Below, piece by piece: positions 1 through 44,716 of a stretch of 64,000 nucleotides of DNA. Below the pieces are notes generated by a model that saw nothing but the letters and a program-made list of their open reading frames with translations, searched no databases and was not told the DNA's origin. How positions within the stretch are numbered: position 1 is the first letter of the stretch; the number at the start of each line of letters is the position of its first letter. Source of the stretch: a virus; the IMG/VR virus record IMGVR_UViG_3300045988_023742, positions 1-64,000 of that record; one strand, 5' to 3'. A program made the position numbers and the translations under genes.

Positions 1-1
1 A

Positions 2-211
2 GAGATTATTCCTAGATTAAATGGAGGTAATACAACACAATATAAGTGTAATTATCACTGGATTAATAATGCTACAGGATTAAGAACGCTCGTTCTTGGT
101 GGCAGCGCTATTAGGGGTGGTGATGCTGGCTTGGGTGGCTTCAGCTCTAACGATGGTGTGGGTAATGCTAATGCTAGTCTCGGGTTCCGTTCTTCATGTG
201 TTGTAGCTTAA
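2..211 (+). CDS. 3' end of the DGR target gene: C-terminal Mtd-like C-type-lectin-fold variable domain, probably a tail-fibre or receptor-binding protein. The 5' part lies outside the window.
   Basis: Frame 2 is open from the window edge to TAA at 209-211. The translation ends LVLGGSAIRGGDAGLGGFSSNDGVGNANASLGFRSSCVVA*, a Gly/Asn/Ala-rich stretch closed by GFR, as in known DGR variable regions. The last ~40 codons are repeated at 405-520 beside an RT gene. Confidence 0.7.
   Translation, partial: EIIPRLNGGNTTQYKCNYHWINNATGLRTLVLGGSAIRGGDAGLGGFSSNDGVGNANASLGFRSSCVVA
89..204 (+). repeat. DGR variable region (VR) plus an IMH-like 3' end
   Basis: This is an imperfect direct repeat of 405-520 (offset 316, then 317 after a 1-nt indel). 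Over 89-194, 80 of 106 aligned positions are identical. It lies in the last codons of the target ORF and is much more GC-rich than its surroundings. Confidence 0.75.
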
Positions 212-232: not shown

Positions 233-264
233 TTTGGTCAATTCAAAAACTTTTTGTAACTTTG
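233..264 (+). promoter_or_regulatory. Bacteroidota-type promoter upstream of the TR-RT unit
   Basis: TTTG (233-236), 20 nt spacer, TAACTTTG (257-264), followed by CAC. The same architecture occurs at 7432, 14689, 22001 and on the - strand at 44716. Confidence 0.55.
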
Positions 265-404
265 CACCTGTTAATGTAAGTGGGGTTTGCATACCCCTTA
301 TAAAACTTAACAACAGTGAGTAAACACTGGAGTAAAATCAGGTTATTATGTTATCCTGAATTACAGTATGCTTAGTTATTCTTGAGTTCTCTAAAAAGTA
401 AAAA

Positions 405-520
405 CTCGTTCTGGGTTGCCGCGCCTGTTGGTGGGGGTTTTGCGGGCTTGGGTTGCTTCGGTTCTCTCCTTGGGGTGGGTGCTGCTTTTGCTGCGGTCGG
501 GTTCCGTTCTTAATGTGTTA
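405..520 (+). repeat. DGR template-repeat-like copy (TR position), entirely free of adenine over 405-511
   Basis: It sits between the target gene and the RT, downstream of a promoter, and is non-coding. It shares with the VR the identical 15-nt block tcgggttccgttctt (180-194 = 497-511). There is no A between A404 and A512. Confidence 0.7.
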
Positions 521-624
521 ATGTTCTTGTGATTATAAATCTCCCTGCTGTAGGGAGTGGAGCTTAATAACCTTGCCTCTTGGCAAAAGATAACGTAGTT
601 TTACAAATCAAAATAGTGTTGGTA

Positions 625-653
625 GGTCATAGGGGATTATTTCTCCTATGACC
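625..653 (+). other. Strong RNA hairpin in the TR-to-RT spacer, a candidate DGR RNA structural element
   Basis: ggtcatagggga (625-636) pairs with tctcctatgacc (642-653): a 12-bp stem with one G-U and a 5-nt loop. Smaller hairpins lie at 541-557 (ctccc/gggag) and 573-586 (ttgcc/ggcaa). Confidence 0.4.
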
Positions 654-706
654 GTTTGAAGGCTCTAGAGAAAGTAACACATGAATTGTGTTTGATGTAA
701 AAGAGA

Positions 707-1921
707 ATGAAGAGACTTAATGGACTTCATGACAGAATCTGCACTTTACAGAACATTGAAGAAGCAGATAAAAATGCAAGAAAGGGTAAACATAACTGGG
801 GTATAATTAAGCATGACCAACATGCTAAAGAAGATAATGAGAAATTATTGGAAACCCTAGAGACTCTTTCCTATACTACTTCAGAGTATAGCAAATACAA
901 GATTTATGAACCAAAAGAAAGAATAATATTTAGACTTCCATATTATCCAGACAGAATAGCTCAATGGGCTATAATGAATGTGATGGAACCCATTTGGACA
1001 GCATCTTTTATAGGTCACACTTACTCTTGTATAAAGGAAAGAGGAATCCATAAACTTGCGCAAGATGTAAAGAAAGCTTTAATAACTGATGCAGAAGGTA
1101 CTATATATTGTTTGAAGATTGATGTTAGAAAGTTTTATCCTTCTATCAATCATAGAACAATGAAAAGATTGCTAAGAAGAAAGATAAAGGATGAAAAGCT
1201 ATTAGTAATACTTGATGAAATAGTTGATTCAGCTGAAGGTGTTCCAATAGGAAATTATTTATCTCAGTTCTTTGCCAACTTGTACCTTACATACTTTGAC
1301 CATTGGTTACTTGAACATGTATGTATCAAACATTACTTTAGGTACGCTGATGACATAGTAATACTATCAGATAGTAGAGAATCCTTAGAGAAGATTTTAA
1401 TACTAATTAAAACATACTTTTCTTGTGAGTTACAAATAAAAATCAAACCTAATTATCAAATCTTTAAAATTGAAGATAGAGGTATTGACTTTGCAGGTTA
1501 TGTATTTTTCCATACTCATACAAAATTAAGAAAGAACATAAAGCAAAGACTATTTAAACTCGTTAATAAGTTTATCTCAGGTAAGGTAACAGAAGAGGAG
1601 TTTAGAAAGAGAATAACTTCTTACTTTGGTTGGTTGAAATACTGTGATTCAAAACATCTTTTACAGAAGATAGAAGAAGAAACAGACATTCATTTATCCA
1701 ATTGGAATGGTGAGAAATCTATAATTAGTAATTTCTATGATAAAACAGTAAGAGTAATTGAAGTTATAGAGTATAGTGGTTATTTTCAAGTACACTTCAT
1801 TTATAAGAATAAACCCTATTCTATCAATAGTAGAAATAAAGCTCTGCATGAAAAGTTAAAAAGCAAGCAATATCCAGTAAACTTTAAGATTAGAAAATAT
1901 GTTAGAGCCAAAGAGAATTGA
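707..1921 (+). CDS. DGR-type reverse transcriptase
   Basis: 404-aa ORF with the DGR-RT hallmark IGNYLSQ (1247-1267) and the catalytic YADD box (1343-1354, YADDIVIL). It is adjacent to a VR/TR-like repeat pair. Confidence 0.9.
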   Translation: MKRLNGLHDRICTLQNIEEADKNARKGKHNWGIIKHDQHAKEDNEKLLETLETLSYTTSEYSKYKIYEPKERIIFRLPYYPDRIAQWAIMNVMEPIWTASFIGHTYSCIKERGIHKLAQDVKKALITDAEGTIYCLKIDVRKFYPSINHRTMKRLLRRKIKDEKLLVILDEIVDSAEGVPIGNYLSQFFANLYLTYFDHWLLEHVCIKHYFRYADDIVILSDSRESLEKILILIKTYFSCELQIKIKPNYQIFKIEDRGIDFAGYVFFHTHTKLRKNIKQRLFKLVNKFISGKVTEEEFRKRITSYFGWLKYCDSKHLLQKIEEETDIHLSNWNGEKSIISNFYDKTVRVIEVIEYSGYFQVHFIYKNKPYSINSRNKALHEKLKSKQYPVNFKIRKYVRAKEN

Positions 1922-2279
1922 TTCAAATATAGCACCTGCTATTACTGAAAATCTTGGTAATGGTAATTGGTACTATAACTATGACATTAAGTCTGAGAAA
2001 GTTGAATTACCTCTTCAAGAGGGTGAAACAGTACCTAAAGAGGAAATTAGATATAACTATATTCAGATTAAATTGTCAGAGAAGCCTGAATATAAGAAGT
2101 GTGTAGAACTTCTTATTAGAGAGTTTATTACTCAAACACAGGAATTTGACTTAATTAACTCTGCTAACAAGGCTATCCTGTCAGGAGCTAAGTCAAGTGA
2201 AGACATAACTAAGTACAGAGAATACCTTGATAAGGTGGAGGAAATAAAAGAAAAGGTAACAAAAGACCTTGGTAAATAA
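1899..2279 (+). CDS. Hypothetical protein downstream of the RT, overlapping it by 23 nt. The C-terminal half looks helical.
   Basis: 126-aa ORF with a single Met, followed by a terminator hairpin. I recognised no motif. Confidence 0.45.
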   Translation: MLEPKRIDSNIAPAITENLGNGNWYYNYDIKSEKVELPLQEGETVPKEEIRYNYIQIKLSEKPEYKKCVELLIREFITQTQEFDLINSANKAILSGAKSSEDITKYREYLDKVEEIKEKVTKDLGK

Positions 2280-4887: not shown

Positions 4888-5784
4888 ATGGATAAAACTT
4901 ATGTTTTTGACACTGCTGAAAGTGGAGGTCTTAACTCTTCAGCTCTTATTGCTAGCTTGATGCAGAACAAAGGTGTTGACCCTAATCTAATGGCAATGCT
5001 AACAAATGCTTCTAAGAACCAAGATGCTTGGGGTGGAAGTGGCTGTTGGTTTATGTGGGTAATTCTTCTTTTCTGGCTTTGGGGTGGTAATGGTTATGGT
5101 AATGGCTTTGGCAGAGGTGCTGCTGATGGCATTCCTAACCAATTAAACAATGACTTTGGTAGAGAAGTATTGCTACAAGCTATTAATGGTAATGGTCAAG
5201 CTTTAAGTCAGCTTGCTACTACTCTTAATTGTGATGTAAACTCACTACAGACTGCTATTGGTAATGTACAGAGTTCTGTACAATCTGTAGCTAGTCAAGT
5301 AGGTATGACAGGTCAGCAAATCATCAATTCTATTCAGCAAGGCAATTGTAGTCTAGGTAATCAATTAGCTCAGTGCTGCTGCTCTATAAATGATGCTATT
5401 ACTAGGACTAATTATGAGAATCAAATCTCTAATGTAAATCAAACTAATACTTTACAGAATGCTATTAACTTTGTTAATAGTTCAGTAGAGAGAGGTTTTG
5501 CAGCTTCAAACTATGCTACTGCACAGCAAACTTGTGACTTAAAGAATGCTATTGCACAGCAAACTACATTAATTAATGACAAGTTCTGTCAGTTAGAGAT
5601 GAGAGAGATGCAGAATAAGATTGATGCTTTGAGACAGGAGAATAGCCAGTTAGTTCTAGCTGCATCACAACAAGCACAGACTGCTAGTATAATTAATCAG
5701 GTAAGACCTACTCCTTCTCCTGCTTATATAGTTGCAAATCCTTATTGCAACTGTGGTAATTCCTATAATGGATGTAATTGCTAA
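4888..5784 (+). CDS. Q/N/G-rich protein with one hydrophobic segment and a Cys-rich C-terminal tail; function unknown
   Basis: 298-aa ORF. It contains WFMWVILLFWLWGGNGYGNGFG, then a long Gln/Asn-rich region with scattered Cys including a CCC triplet, and ends NPYCNCGNSYNGCNC. It is the first gene after a promoter. Confidence 0.65.
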   Translation: MDKTYVFDTAESGGLNSSALIASLMQNKGVDPNLMAMLTNASKNQDAWGGSGCWFMWVILLFWLWGGNGYGNGFGRGAADGIPNQLNNDFGREVLLQAINGNGQALSQLATTLNCDVNSLQTAIGNVQSSVQSVASQVGMTGQQIINSIQQGNCSLGNQLAQCCCSINDAITRTNYENQISNVNQTNTLQNAINFVNSSVERGFAASNYATAQQTCDLKNAIAQQTTLINDKFCQLEMREMQNKIDALRQENSQLVLAASQQAQTASIINQVRPTPSPAYIVANPYCNCGNSYNGCNC

Positions 5785-5802
5785 TTTTTAAAGTAAATAA
5801 CT

Positions 5803-6213
5803 ATGGCAGTAACAGTTTCACCAGTAGGATTAGCTGCTGCTCAAGTAGCAAATGTAGCTAATATAATGGCTACTTACAAAGAAAAGCTTTGTAGACCTTA
5901 CTGCATAGACTCAACTATCCAACCTCAAGTATCTGTAGTTTATACTACAGGTACTCCAAGGTTGAATGATACTACAGTCTTTGTTCCTGTAAGAGCTACA
6001 ATTACTATTGTTACACAGATGAATAAATGTGGCTGCAATGCACATACACAATTATTTACTGAAGACTTTGTAGTAGCATTTCAAGGAAGAACAGCATTAC
6101 CTACTACAGTTACTTTAGCTAACTTAGGTAGAGATGCTTTTGGTTCAAATGTTAATTGTGGTAGAGCATATAGCTATACTATCAATGACTCTATTTCAAT
6201 AACATTAGCATAG
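5803..6213 (+). CDS. Hypothetical protein (looks beta-rich)
   Basis: 136-aa ORF packed in the same orientation as its neighbours. Confidence 0.6.
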   Translation: MAVTVSPVGLAAAQVANVANIMATYKEKLCRPYCIDSTIQPQVSVVYTTGTPRLNDTTVFVPVRATITIVTQMNKCGCNAHTQLFTEDFVVAFQGRTALPTTVTLANLGRDAFGSNVNCGRAYSYTINDSISITLA

Positions 6214-11218: not shown

Positions 11219-12001
11219 ATGACCAACGAAGAATTTAGTAATGAATTTGATGTTCTTTACAATAGTATAACTAGTAATCAGGCTCCTGGGCTTGATGAAT
11301 ATGAGAAGAGTGTCTTCTTAACTAAGGCACAATCTGAGATACTTAGGGAATACTTTAACTCTAGAGTAGATGGTACTAATGGTGGTTTTGATGGAAGTCA
11401 GAAGAGACAATATGACTTTTCATTTTTAATTAAAACTACTATACTAGATGCTAATCTAGCTAATGAGAGTGAAGAAGGATACATTCCTAAGATAGATAAT
11501 AGAGGCTATTTATTTAACTTTCCAGAGGATTACTTTCTTAGTATTAATGAAGTTATTAGGGATGATGAATCCAGCAATAAATTTTATTCTGTAGTTTCAA
11601 TAAGTTATTCTGATTACCAAAGATTAATGACTAAACCTTATGCTTATCCTCCTAAGAGAGTAGCATGGAGATTGTTTATTGGAACAATACAGAAGACCTT
11701 AGAAGATACAACTAAGGTAACAGTTCCTGTAGCAGAAATTATAGGAAAGTTTGTTGGCAACTCAAATAATTGGAATTACACTCTTAGATATGTAAAGAAG
11801 CCTAATCCAATTATCCTTATTAACTTAACTGATGATGATTTGTCTATTGAAGGTAAGAAAACAGAAACTCCTTGTGAGTTTCCTTCTCAGCTACATCAAG
11901 AAATTCTTGAGAGAGCTGTAACATTAGCTAAGATAGCATATCAGGCAGGTTCTACTGCTACTATTGCAGCGCAGTCTAATAAGAATAATCAACAGCAGTA
12001 A
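11219..12001 (+). CDS. Virion-module protein, tandem paralog A
   Basis: Its N- and C-termini align with the next gene: EEFSNEFDVL.., LDEYEKS..LT.AQ, P.PIIL..LTD..LSI.G, ILERAV.LA. Confidence 0.65.
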   Translation: MTNEEFSNEFDVLYNSITSNQAPGLDEYEKSVFLTKAQSEILREYFNSRVDGTNGGFDGSQKRQYDFSFLIKTTILDANLANESEEGYIPKIDNRGYLFNFPEDYFLSINEVIRDDESSNKFYSVVSISYSDYQRLMTKPYAYPPKRVAWRLFIGTIQKTLEDTTKVTVPVAEIIGKFVGNSNNWNYTLRYVKKPNPIILINLTDDDLSIEGKKTETPCEFPSQLHQEILERAVTLAKIAYQAGSTATIAAQSNKNNQQQ

Positions 12002-12003
12002 TT

Positions 12004-12705
12004 ATGACTATAGAGGAATTTAGTAATGAATTTGATGTCCTACTTAATAGTTATGCTGCTAATAATCCTTTTGGTATAGGTCAAGGTCTAACACAACTAG
12101 ATGAATATGAGAAATCAATTCTATTAACAGAAGCTCAAGAATCTATTGTAAGAGACTTATATAATGGCAAACTAACAGGAGATGGCTTTGAATCAACTGA
12201 AGAACAGAGAAGAAATCTTGACTCATTAGTCAATACTCTAGAACTAACATCTAAGGATATTTCAAAACCAAAGATGTCAGATAATTCTGAGTTCTTTCAG
12301 TTACCTTCAGATGTGTGGTTTATTACTTATGAGTCAGTACTTCTATCTGATGAATCTCTAGGATGCAAGAATAATACTAGAGCAGATGTAATTCCTGTAA
12401 GACAGGATGAGTATCATAGTATAAAGAATAATCCTTTTAGAGGACCTTCAGATAAAAGAGTTATAAGAATAGATACTGGCTCTTCAGTAATAGAGCTTAT
12501 ATCTAAATATACAATTCAAAGCTACTTTATAAAGTATCTCAGTAAGCCTAAACCTATTATTCTACAGGACATCACAGATGAAAATCTGTCAATAAATGGA
12601 GAAACAAAGAGGATGGGATGTGAACTAAATACAGTATTACACAGAACTATCCTAGAGAGGGCTGTAGCTTTAGCCATTAAGAGGCTCCCCTCAAAGAATG
12701 TATAA
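12004..12705 (+). CDS. Virion-module protein, tandem paralog B
   Basis: 233 aa, clearly homologous to 11219..12001 when the track translations are compared directly. Confidence 0.65.
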   Translation: MTIEEFSNEFDVLLNSYAANNPFGIGQGLTQLDEYEKSILLTEAQESIVRDLYNGKLTGDGFESTEEQRRNLDSLVNTLELTSKDISKPKMSDNSEFFQLPSDVWFITYESVLLSDESLGCKNNTRADVIPVRQDEYHSIKNNPFRGPSDKRVIRIDTGSSVIELISKYTIQSYFIKYLSKPKPIILQDITDENLSINGETKRMGCELNTVLHRTILERAVALAIKRLPSKNV

Positions 12706-22000: not shown

Positions 22001-22032
22001 TTTGGTAATATCATCTATTTTATGTACCTTTG
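22001..22032 (+). promoter_or_regulatory. Bacteroidota-type promoter of the operon for the giant virion proteins
   Basis: TTTG (22001-22004), 20 nt spacer, TACCTTTG (22025-22032), followed by CAC. Confidence 0.6.
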
Positions 22033-22052
22033 CACAAGTAAACTTATAAGTT

Positions 22053-44661: not shown

Positions 44662-44684
44662 ATAGTATAATTAAAATTTTAGTG

Positions 44685-44716
44685 CAAAGTTAATTAAATT
44701 TGCTCAGTTTACCAAA
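44685..44716 (-). promoter_or_regulatory. Bacteroidota-type promoter of the RNAP operon
   Basis: On the - strand: TTTG (44716-44713), 20 nt spacer, TAACTTTG (44692-44685), followed by CAC. The ATG is at 44661. Confidence 0.6.

Follow-up and report, generated by a model that had tools for sequence, protein, structure and literature searches.

The invariance of the template repeat (TR) is the central design principle of diversity-generating retroelements (DGRs): a master copy is kept so that the variable repeat (VR) can be rewritten endlessly. At the template position of the phage cassette described here lies a repeat that contains no adenine, and the locus raises the question of whether this repeat is the template itself, how it came to lose its adenines, and what became of the tail protein whose gene ends in the VR. 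The window is the whole stretch of DNA that was analysed, namely the 64,000 nucleotides at positions 1 to 64,000 of IMG/VR virus record IMGVR_UViG_3300045988_023742. Together with about 4.5 kb upstream, it makes up the inspected DNA of a genome of roughly 100 kb, of which about 35 kb lies beyond view. The original prediction held that the template had been through repeated adenine mutagenesis or, alternatively, that an A-free template had been selected.

The phage and its DGR cassette

The phage is crAss-like, comes from the human gut and is related to IAS virus (Crassvirales, Steigviridae); from window position 1878 onwards, the two share 90% nucleotide identity. Its cassette has the order target-VR-TR-RT, lacks avd, and comprises the following features, with coordinates in the window:

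1-211, plus strand: 3' end of the DGR target gene (tail protein); the ORF enters from beyond the 5' end of the window and stops at TAA 209-211
89-204, plus strand: variable repeat (VR), which departs from the ancestral TR within 92-182
183-202, plus strand: conserved 3' end of the VR, GGTTCCGTTCTT-C-ATGTGTT, predicted to act as an IMH-like end
233-266, plus strand: Bacteroidetes-type promoter-like motif (TTTG..N..TAACTTTGCA) between VR and TR, from a motif search
275-404, plus strand: leader 5' of the TR with small hairpins; it ends in aaaaa (400-404), in which no A is mutated, and one base (385) differs from sister locus L163
405-511, plus strand: A-free template repeat (TR) at the native, orthologous position; 30 A>N (408-499), five T>G and one inserted C (about 424)
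500-520, plus strand: 3' end of the TR, IMH*-like, GGTTCCGTTCTT-A-ATGTGTTA; identical to intact relatives, with A at 512-513 unmutated
541-557, plus strand: G+C-rich hairpin CTCCCT-GCTGT-AGGGAG, 30 nt downstream of the TR; kept in relatives, DNA fold z = -2.7
569-682, plus strand: structured RNA element between TR and RT, Rfam RT-17-like, conserved in more than 50 relatives
707-1921, plus strand: DGR reverse transcriptase (RT) ORF, 404 aa, intact; RVT_1, phrog_1423
1899-2279, plus strand: 126-aa ORF overlapping the RT stop, outside the DGR; it persists in RT-less relatives

The RT matches RVT_1 (E 8e-15) and phrog_1423 (E 6e-106), and its ORF is open throughout with the LSQ and YADD motifs present, in agreement with the original prediction that the RT is still intact. 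This RT of the DGR clade adjoins two repeats of about 100 nt, the VR ending the target ORF and the TR near the RT. Homologues in IMG/VR and metagenome contigs, at 52-68% identity, lie in classical target-VR-TR-RT cassettes in which the TRs contain 21-35 A and all or nearly all VR/TR mismatches lie opposite one of these. About 160 classical cassettes from the IMG/VR and metagenome scans serve as the background set. These collections contain no closer RT relative (none above 61% identity in IMG/VR or 68% in the metagenome contigs), and close relatives were obtained only from a protein-cluster index. The RT, the architecture and the descent of the element all mark it as a DGR, although in its present state the mismatches at template adenines are absent.

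The 3' ends of the two repeats read GGTTCCGTTCTT-C-ATGTGTTGTAGC in the VR versus GGTTCCGTTCTT-A-ATGTGTTAATGT in the TR, and this difference is fixed in all relatives: C195 is present in all VRs, and the TRs carry A there. As a putative IMH/IMH* pair, these sequences fit DGR design. A DNA hairpin downstream of the VR was considered as a target signal and rejected; no significant hairpin was found after the VR, where the fold is no better than that of shuffled sequence.

The motif TTTG-N17-21-TAnnTTTGCA, read by the Bacteroides promoter consensus, has three matches in the window (233-266 and 22001-22034 on the plus strand and 44683-44716 on the minus strand) versus 0.15 expected. The match between VR and TR is kept in relatives in which TR and RT are deleted, and it is likely to mark the start of a TR-RT transcript. 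Extended repeats around the motif correspond to D10, I1 and I8 of the repeat search. Between TR and RT, the element at 569-682 gives a full-length match to Rfam RF03020 (RT-17 RNA) with 27.8 bits (E 0.0013 in a 221-nt search), which is below the gathering score of 40.4 and counts as a resemblance only. By BLAST, window 565-627 is common to the window and the homologous cassettes, again between TR and RT. This RNA presumably recruits or primes the RT as a spacer RNA, and it may be a divergent branch of the RT-associated RT-17 motif.

No Avd was found: there is no ORF between VR and RT, and the 126-aa ORF has no Avd-like Pfam match. The latter ORF occurs at 90% nucleotide identity in IAS virus and is also present in sister loci L185-L187, all of which are without RT. 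The absence of avd is normal for the crAss/lineage-3 type of DGR (PMC7290462). Far downstream of the cassette, two 71-nt stretches (window 11219-11289 and 12004-12074), 785 nt apart and 72% identical, both start with ATG (ATGAC..GAATTTAGTAATGAATTTGATGT); they may belong to adjacent paralogous genes with a conserved N-terminus.

An A-free repeat at the template position

The 107 nt at window 405-511 consist of 42 G, 41 T, 24 C and 0 A. They follow directly on aaaaa (400-404) and run into taat at the 3' end, and the base counts confirm the A-free run and edges that had been described in the original prediction. In the window as a whole, A accounts for 33.7% of bases, the second-longest A-free run in the 64 kb is 26 nt, and the computed chance expectation of a 107-nt A-free run is about 5e-15 per window. 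The exact sequence of the tract has 0 matches in IMG/VR.

A repeat search of the 64-kb window finds two copies only, the VR (89-204) and the copy at the TR position (405-520), which is 186 nt upstream of the RT; a third copy is absent from the window. The two copies differ at 26 mismatch columns and by one extra C. All 13 adenines of the VR fall on mismatch columns and the other 13 columns pair a non-A with a non-A base, just as the earlier alignment had it. Consequently, none of the 26 mismatches (0/26) in the present pair faces a TR adenine.

A 43-aa ORF with a TTG start (382-513) lies over the TR, and public contigs have no gene call there; this ORF is a by-product of composition, since A-free sequence has no possible stop codon. 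With 39% G and seven runs of three to five G, the tract may fold into G-quadruplex-like structures, either as DNA or within the TR RNA.

The ancestral template in sister genomes

Sister loci reveal what the template was before it lost its adenines. At 22 loci from about 20 sequencing runs, with RTs 89-99% identical to that of the window, an A-rich TR lies between near-identical flanks; the set consists of L163 (RT 99% identical), L164 and L165 (89%) and about 19 further loci. The ancestral TR reads CTCATTCTTAGTAGCAACGCTAATAATGGTGGTAATGCTAGCTTAGGTAACTTCAA(T/C)TCTAACAATGGTGTAGGTAATGCTAATGCTAATATCAGGTTCCGTTCTT and contains 30 A; read in the VR frame, it has 11 AAY codons. All 22 sister TRs retain 30 of 30 A. 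Outside the repeats, the window and L163 differ at about 9 positions in roughly 1700 nt (~0.5%). The tract itself carries 36 changes in 107 nt, a density roughly 70 times that of the flanks.

Relative to the ancestor, every one of the 30 A, all within 408-499, is replaced (16 by G, nine by T and five by C), T is changed to G at five positions (413, 435, 444, 474 and 495), and one C is inserted at about 424. Sorted by ancestral base, the substitutions affect 30/30 A, 5/37 T, 0/21 G and 0/18 C. Changed adenines run from 408 to 499, those at 400-404 and 512-513 being left as they were, and the columns that vary in the VR (92-182) correspond to this span. As judged from these alignments, the A-free copy is orthologous to the intact TR and is not an extra decayed copy, and its changes are specific to A and T and stop at exact tract boundaries.

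The comparison with orthologous cassettes, which the original prediction had proposed as a check, finds A at predicted columns and at 11 more, the latter hidden because both copies carry the same substituted base. The proposal that the template had A at all 26 mismatch columns holds for 19 of them; the other seven were T, five having become G in the 405-511 copy and two having changed in the VR (one T>G and one T>C), and the true total is 30 A. The number of AAY codons had been put at five rather than 11. The VR did keep 13 A, as stated, but measured against the ancestral TR the fraction is 13/30 and not 13/26.

Little else distinguishes the lineage from its sisters. The 3' flank of the TR, which is IMH*-like, has no cis change versus intact sisters. 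The RT differs by 3-7 residues from the RTs of intact-TR sisters, and an RT substitution was rejected as a cause of mis-targeting: the only lineage-specific one, I294V, is conservative. In P0001/L163 (around L163 2800-2835), a G to T change in the RT stop codon (window 1920) lengthens the protein by nine residues; the resulting length of 413 aa is common to several members of the cluster.

Signature of the substitutions

The changes in the window TR were compared with those in 10 sister VRs, each set against its own TR. Pooled A retention in these VRs is 0.337 (range 0.13-0.47). Their A substitutions (G115/T37/C31) and those of the window TR (G16/T9/C5) have spectra that do not differ by chi-square (p = 0.47). 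The sister VRs also have non-A changes at about 2% of positions, T>G being the commonest, and the L172 VR has a T>G at the same column as window 413. The window TR has six non-A changes in 76 positions versus the ~2% per VR. Overall, A accounts for 83% of its changes and T for 14%, G and C being unaffected, and a mutated A lies directly on the 3' side of three of the five T>G changes.

A similar profile has been measured for the RT of Bordetella phage BPP-1. In a screen of 702 templates, 85.5% of mutations were at A and 10.9% at T, extra errors occurred at the +1 base after a mis-incorporation, and 'TR self-mutagenesis' was described when cDNA can recombine into its own locus (10.1101/2025.03.24.644984). 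Because the spectrum resembles those of the sister VRs and of the BPP-1 RT, and because there is a precedent for TR self-mutagenesis, the changes in the window TR are attributed to the DGR RT.

Two further biases were considered and discarded. An AG-context bias for A>G is a trend only (5/6 versus 11/24) and is not significant. All five T>G changes are at third codon positions, which might have pointed to a coding past (p ~0.1, own count), but 64% of T are at third positions anyway. Among the active sisters, the L164 VR (about 2400-2490) has an in-frame 3-nt deletion and the L168 VR (about 880-990) an in-frame 6-nt duplication (GGCTTC), each relative to its own TR; this RT or the homing process thus also makes indels, like the 1-nt insertion in the window TR.

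History of the VR and the apparently frozen tail protein

The full target gene, present in the identical contig L162, encodes 729 aa. Its product matches PHROG phrog_5302 'tail protein' (E 8e-75) and has a G-F-R-S motif at its end; a Pfam search gave no match. Versus the ancestral TR, the window VR has 17 A>N changes, one T>G (115) and one T>C (145), and it keeps 13/30 A. The adenine bias of a DGR is therefore visible only historically, in that 17 of the 19 VR tract differences from the ancestral TR are at A. On this alignment the VR descends from an intact TR and is not a copy of the present A-free sequence, as the original prediction had argued from the two copies by themselves. At the 17 columns where the VR lost its A, the TR copy has the same base at 11, whereas about 8.5 would be expected from the G bias; a shared history of the VR and the A-free TR was rejected, as the excess is not significant (Fisher p = 0.25).

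The A-free sequence and the same VR are identical in three assemblies (the window, ERR321474 and ERR209463). Over 6.5 kb, no difference separates loci L179 and L180, which come from two runs, and a single SNP sets the window apart from both; it lies at position 56 and not in the VR. Exactly this 729-aa target protein is encoded on 12 contigs. Ongoing VR diversification was not seen in the window lineage across these 12 contigs and three assemblies, a proxy result because some samples may have been assembled more than once among the 12. Where contigs have one RT protein in common and an intact TR, each has its own VR. Of 14 short contigs from intact-TR lineages, 10 are broken off within the VR or at its edge, as expected if within-sample VR heterogeneity breaks these assemblies. 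Contigs that start inside the VR or at its 3' edge include L165, L170, L173, L174, L188, L191 and others. The A-free lineage is represented by three Logan loci (two contigs) that run straight through the VR.

Since the present TR is not what the VR was copied from, no transfer has survived since the erosion, and a template without A generates no diversity. On translation, full transfer of the present TR into the VR would carry the extra C along and would put the last ~28 codons of the tail protein out of frame.

Proposed overwriting of the template and alternative explanations

The history that we consider probable is that the TR, at its native position, was overwritten by adenine-mutagenised cDNA from its own transcript, probably several times. 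Mutagenised cDNA made from the TR transcript would home into the TR instead of, or besides, the VR. A substituted A could not be restored, which would make the process one-way, and probably three or more hits would leave no A at all. The element would still be transcribable with its RT intact, yet no diversification would be possible, and the VR would be frozen in the state that it received from a still A-rich TR. In one scenario, stable selection on the receptor-binding sequence would purge rewritten VRs, while hits on the non-coding TR would be neutral and accumulate. The central claim of the original prediction, that the template itself was adenine-mutagenised by cDNA homing into the TR, agrees with the A-rich orthologue, the confinement of the changes to the tract and their DGR spectrum. 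From the same data we infer that the TR was overwritten more than once and that cDNA entered it directly and not through the VR; the RT would still be active. The broader statement, namely natural and repeated mutagenic retrohoming into the TR of an avd-less crAss-type DGR, acting as an irreversible A-erasing ratchet that freezes receptor specificity, is in our judgement evenly balanced between holding and failing.

The number of hits is where the main alternative lies. At a retention of 0.34, a TR would lose all 30 A with a probability of 4e-6 in one round, 0.03 in two, 0.31 in three and 0.68 in four; at the lowest retention observed (~0.16), one round gives 0.005. Because of these retention probabilities and the excess of non-A changes, several successive hits on the TR are the most likely history. 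A single catastrophic event, in which one cDNA mis-incorporated at every A, for example under a nucleotide-pool imbalance, and replaced the TR once, is unlikely, though not impossible. A single rare entry into the TR would suffice for it, lineages do show an all-or-none pattern, and it is conceivable because A retention in a VR can reach 0.13 (L163, 4/30 kept; L101 keeps 6/31). The VR of L166 has four non-A changes, so that the six of the window TR are not far beyond the range of one event, but the density of T>G (5/37 T) is about 10 times the mean per VR (four in 10 VRs). None of the 22 sister TRs is partly eroded, and the TRs of the nearest RT variants, P0133 and P0134, which share C206, are fully intact and provide no intermediates. 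No other A-free TR exists among 164 RT loci beyond the window lineage, the other long A-free runs being VRs. With no intermediates the pattern is all-or-none, and the case for repeated hits is drawn from the probabilities only.

Instead of direct retrohoming, the TR could have been replaced through recombination with a homologous, A-poor VR allele, whether of its own genome or of a co-infecting one, and RT-independent recombination between TR and VR has been noted in an engineered system (10.1101/2025.03.24.644984). Without its extra C, the A-free tract encodes a plausible VR scaffold (LVLGCRAVGGGFAGLGCFGSLLGVGAAFAAVGFRS), and the two copies share the same base at 11/17 columns where the VR lost its A. 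Such sharing is no commoner than the G bias predicts, however, and the copy carries a frame-breaking insertion. No A-free VR was seen (the minimum kept is 4/30), the exchange would still have to be repeated to remove every A, and the 5' flanking homology is only 3-8 nt. Gene conversion is accordingly an improbable source of the tract. A chimera assembled from VR reads, or a spare copy that decayed while the true TR lies elsewhere, would be suggested by the fact that VR heterogeneity does break sister-lineage assemblies and that the inspected 64 kb plus ~4.5 kb upstream is part of a genome of roughly 100 kb. Yet three assemblies give an identical sequence with TR-specific flanks on both sides, and the stretches shared exactly with the VR are 8 nt (405-412) and 15 nt (497-511). 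Typical assembler k-mers are longer than either. A spare copy is further contradicted by the position of the tract at the orthologous TR site, where relatives have a single TR, and by the lack of a third copy in the window; artefact and extra copy are together very improbable.

Ordinary decay, in which spontaneous point mutations accumulate or a non-diversifying template is favoured in a stable environment, has the advantage that a model predicts progressive loss of TR adenines (10.64898/2026.02.18.706561) and that loss of the DGR is recurrent in the clade, through RT nonsense (L181/L182) and through deletion of TR and RT (L185-L187 and IAS virus). It conflicts with the 36 changes in 107 nt as against ~0.5% divergence in the flanks and RT, with the absence of any changed G or C, and with the untouched adenines directly outside the tract. 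Because of this contrast in rate, the slow spontaneous-mutation path is excluded at the window locus, and selection for an A-free template as the source, which the original prediction had offered as its alternative, finds no support in the outcome: the sequence is not an adapted VR, since it is 26 columns off the VR and carries a frameshifting extra C. We regard ordinary decay or selection as having hardly any chance of being correct. Repeated overwriting by the element's own cDNA leaves two features to be accounted for. With no cis change in the TR 3' flank and only I294V in the RT, the entry of cDNA into the TR is unexplained, and the VR was not rewritten during the supposed hits on the TR, which requires that rewritten VRs were purged by selection.

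Other losses of the DGR in the clade

Two further ways of losing a DGR occur among the relatives. In L181 (1928-3142) and L182 (from ERR13326050 and ERR13325716), the SQ motif of the RT is interrupted by a nonsense codon (GNYLS*FFANLYL), the TR is fully intact, and the VR is identical in the two runs. In L185-L187 (e.g., L185 3950-4270), TR and RT are cleanly deleted; the promoter-like motif is kept, as are the final codons of the RT, into which the start of the following gene extends. The target protein of these three loci, 539 aa long, is identical on 24 contigs, and its VR changes do not look DGR-made. IAS virus itself (NC_049978, L001) keeps a VR-like remnant and the promoter region at 5750-6010, and short remnants only of the RT gene (corresponding to about window 1170-1195 and from 1888 onwards), which indicates that its DGR was deleted. 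The NC_049978 record is dense with N exactly around the VR remnant.

Implications

The finding is sound; it concerns one lineage, and its mechanism is deduced. A natural cassette with a hypermutated master copy indicates that the safeguard of the TR can fail. The A-free template represents a third route to the death of a DGR, mechanistically distinct from the RT mutation and the deletions in the clade. The erased tract would be a natural footprint of the transferred cDNA, in which every A at 408-499 is changed and none at 400-404 or 512-513, and such a footprint would fix the limits of information transfer in an uncultured crAss-type DGR to within a few bases. If the proposed history is true, the rule that information flows only from TR to VR fails.

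Detection is affected as well. Surveys usually expect at least about 75% of mismatches to be at TR adenines, and only seven genuine clusters are reported below 75% (PMC8144416). Because DGR finders and surveys filter on adenine bias (PMC8144416), burnt-out DGRs would be missed, and if the proposed history is true they could be much commoner than one lineage suggests. Modellers of DGR maintenance gain a real case that differs from the predicted path of slow mutation.

Comparison with known systems

Full-text literature searches did not find a natural A-free or self-mutagenised TR, and the cassette is best placed by comparison with four kinds of system. The crAssphage LMMB 'lineage 3' DGR (target-VR(IMH)-TR(IMH*)-RT; PMC7290462) is alike in its gene order, in the lack of avd, in a VR that ends a tail-fibre-type gene, in a TR just upstream of the RT and in a structured spacer RNA. 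The sister genomes are textbook lineage-3 cases, with 30 A, 11 AAY codons and a different VR per sample. In contrast to the crAssphage LMMB element, the window has an A-free TR and lacks the pattern of mismatches at TR adenines, and it belongs to a different crAss family (Steigviridae, IAS-virus-like).

Self-mutagenesis of a template has been obtained by engineering. A swap of IMH* to IMH in Bordetella phage BPP-1 by Doulatov et al. in 2004 reportedly led to mutagenesis of the template itself. TR self-mutagenesis in DGRec (10.1101/2025.03.24.644984) is alike in that cDNA overwrites its own TR locus with about 85% of changes at A, 11% at T and clustered errors. Both of these engineered cases depend on a recombinase or a swapped IMH in a laboratory construct, whereas the window derives from a natural phage with an unaltered IMH*-like flank, in which the process has run to completion.

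Incomplete cassettes are frequent in crAss-like phages, occurring in 66 of 91 genomes (PMC7290462). These decayed cassettes resemble that of the window in that diversification is lost and the VR is frozen, but they have arisen by truncations, deletions and stop codons, whereas in the window all protein and RNA parts are intact and the information of the template appears to have been erased by the element's own chemistry. The theory of TR adenine loss (10.64898/2026.02.18.706561) likewise has TRs lose A and DGRs become inoperative. It proceeds by spontaneous mutation and converges on the adapted VR, whereas the window tract has changed about 70 times faster than its flanks and has become unlike the VR.
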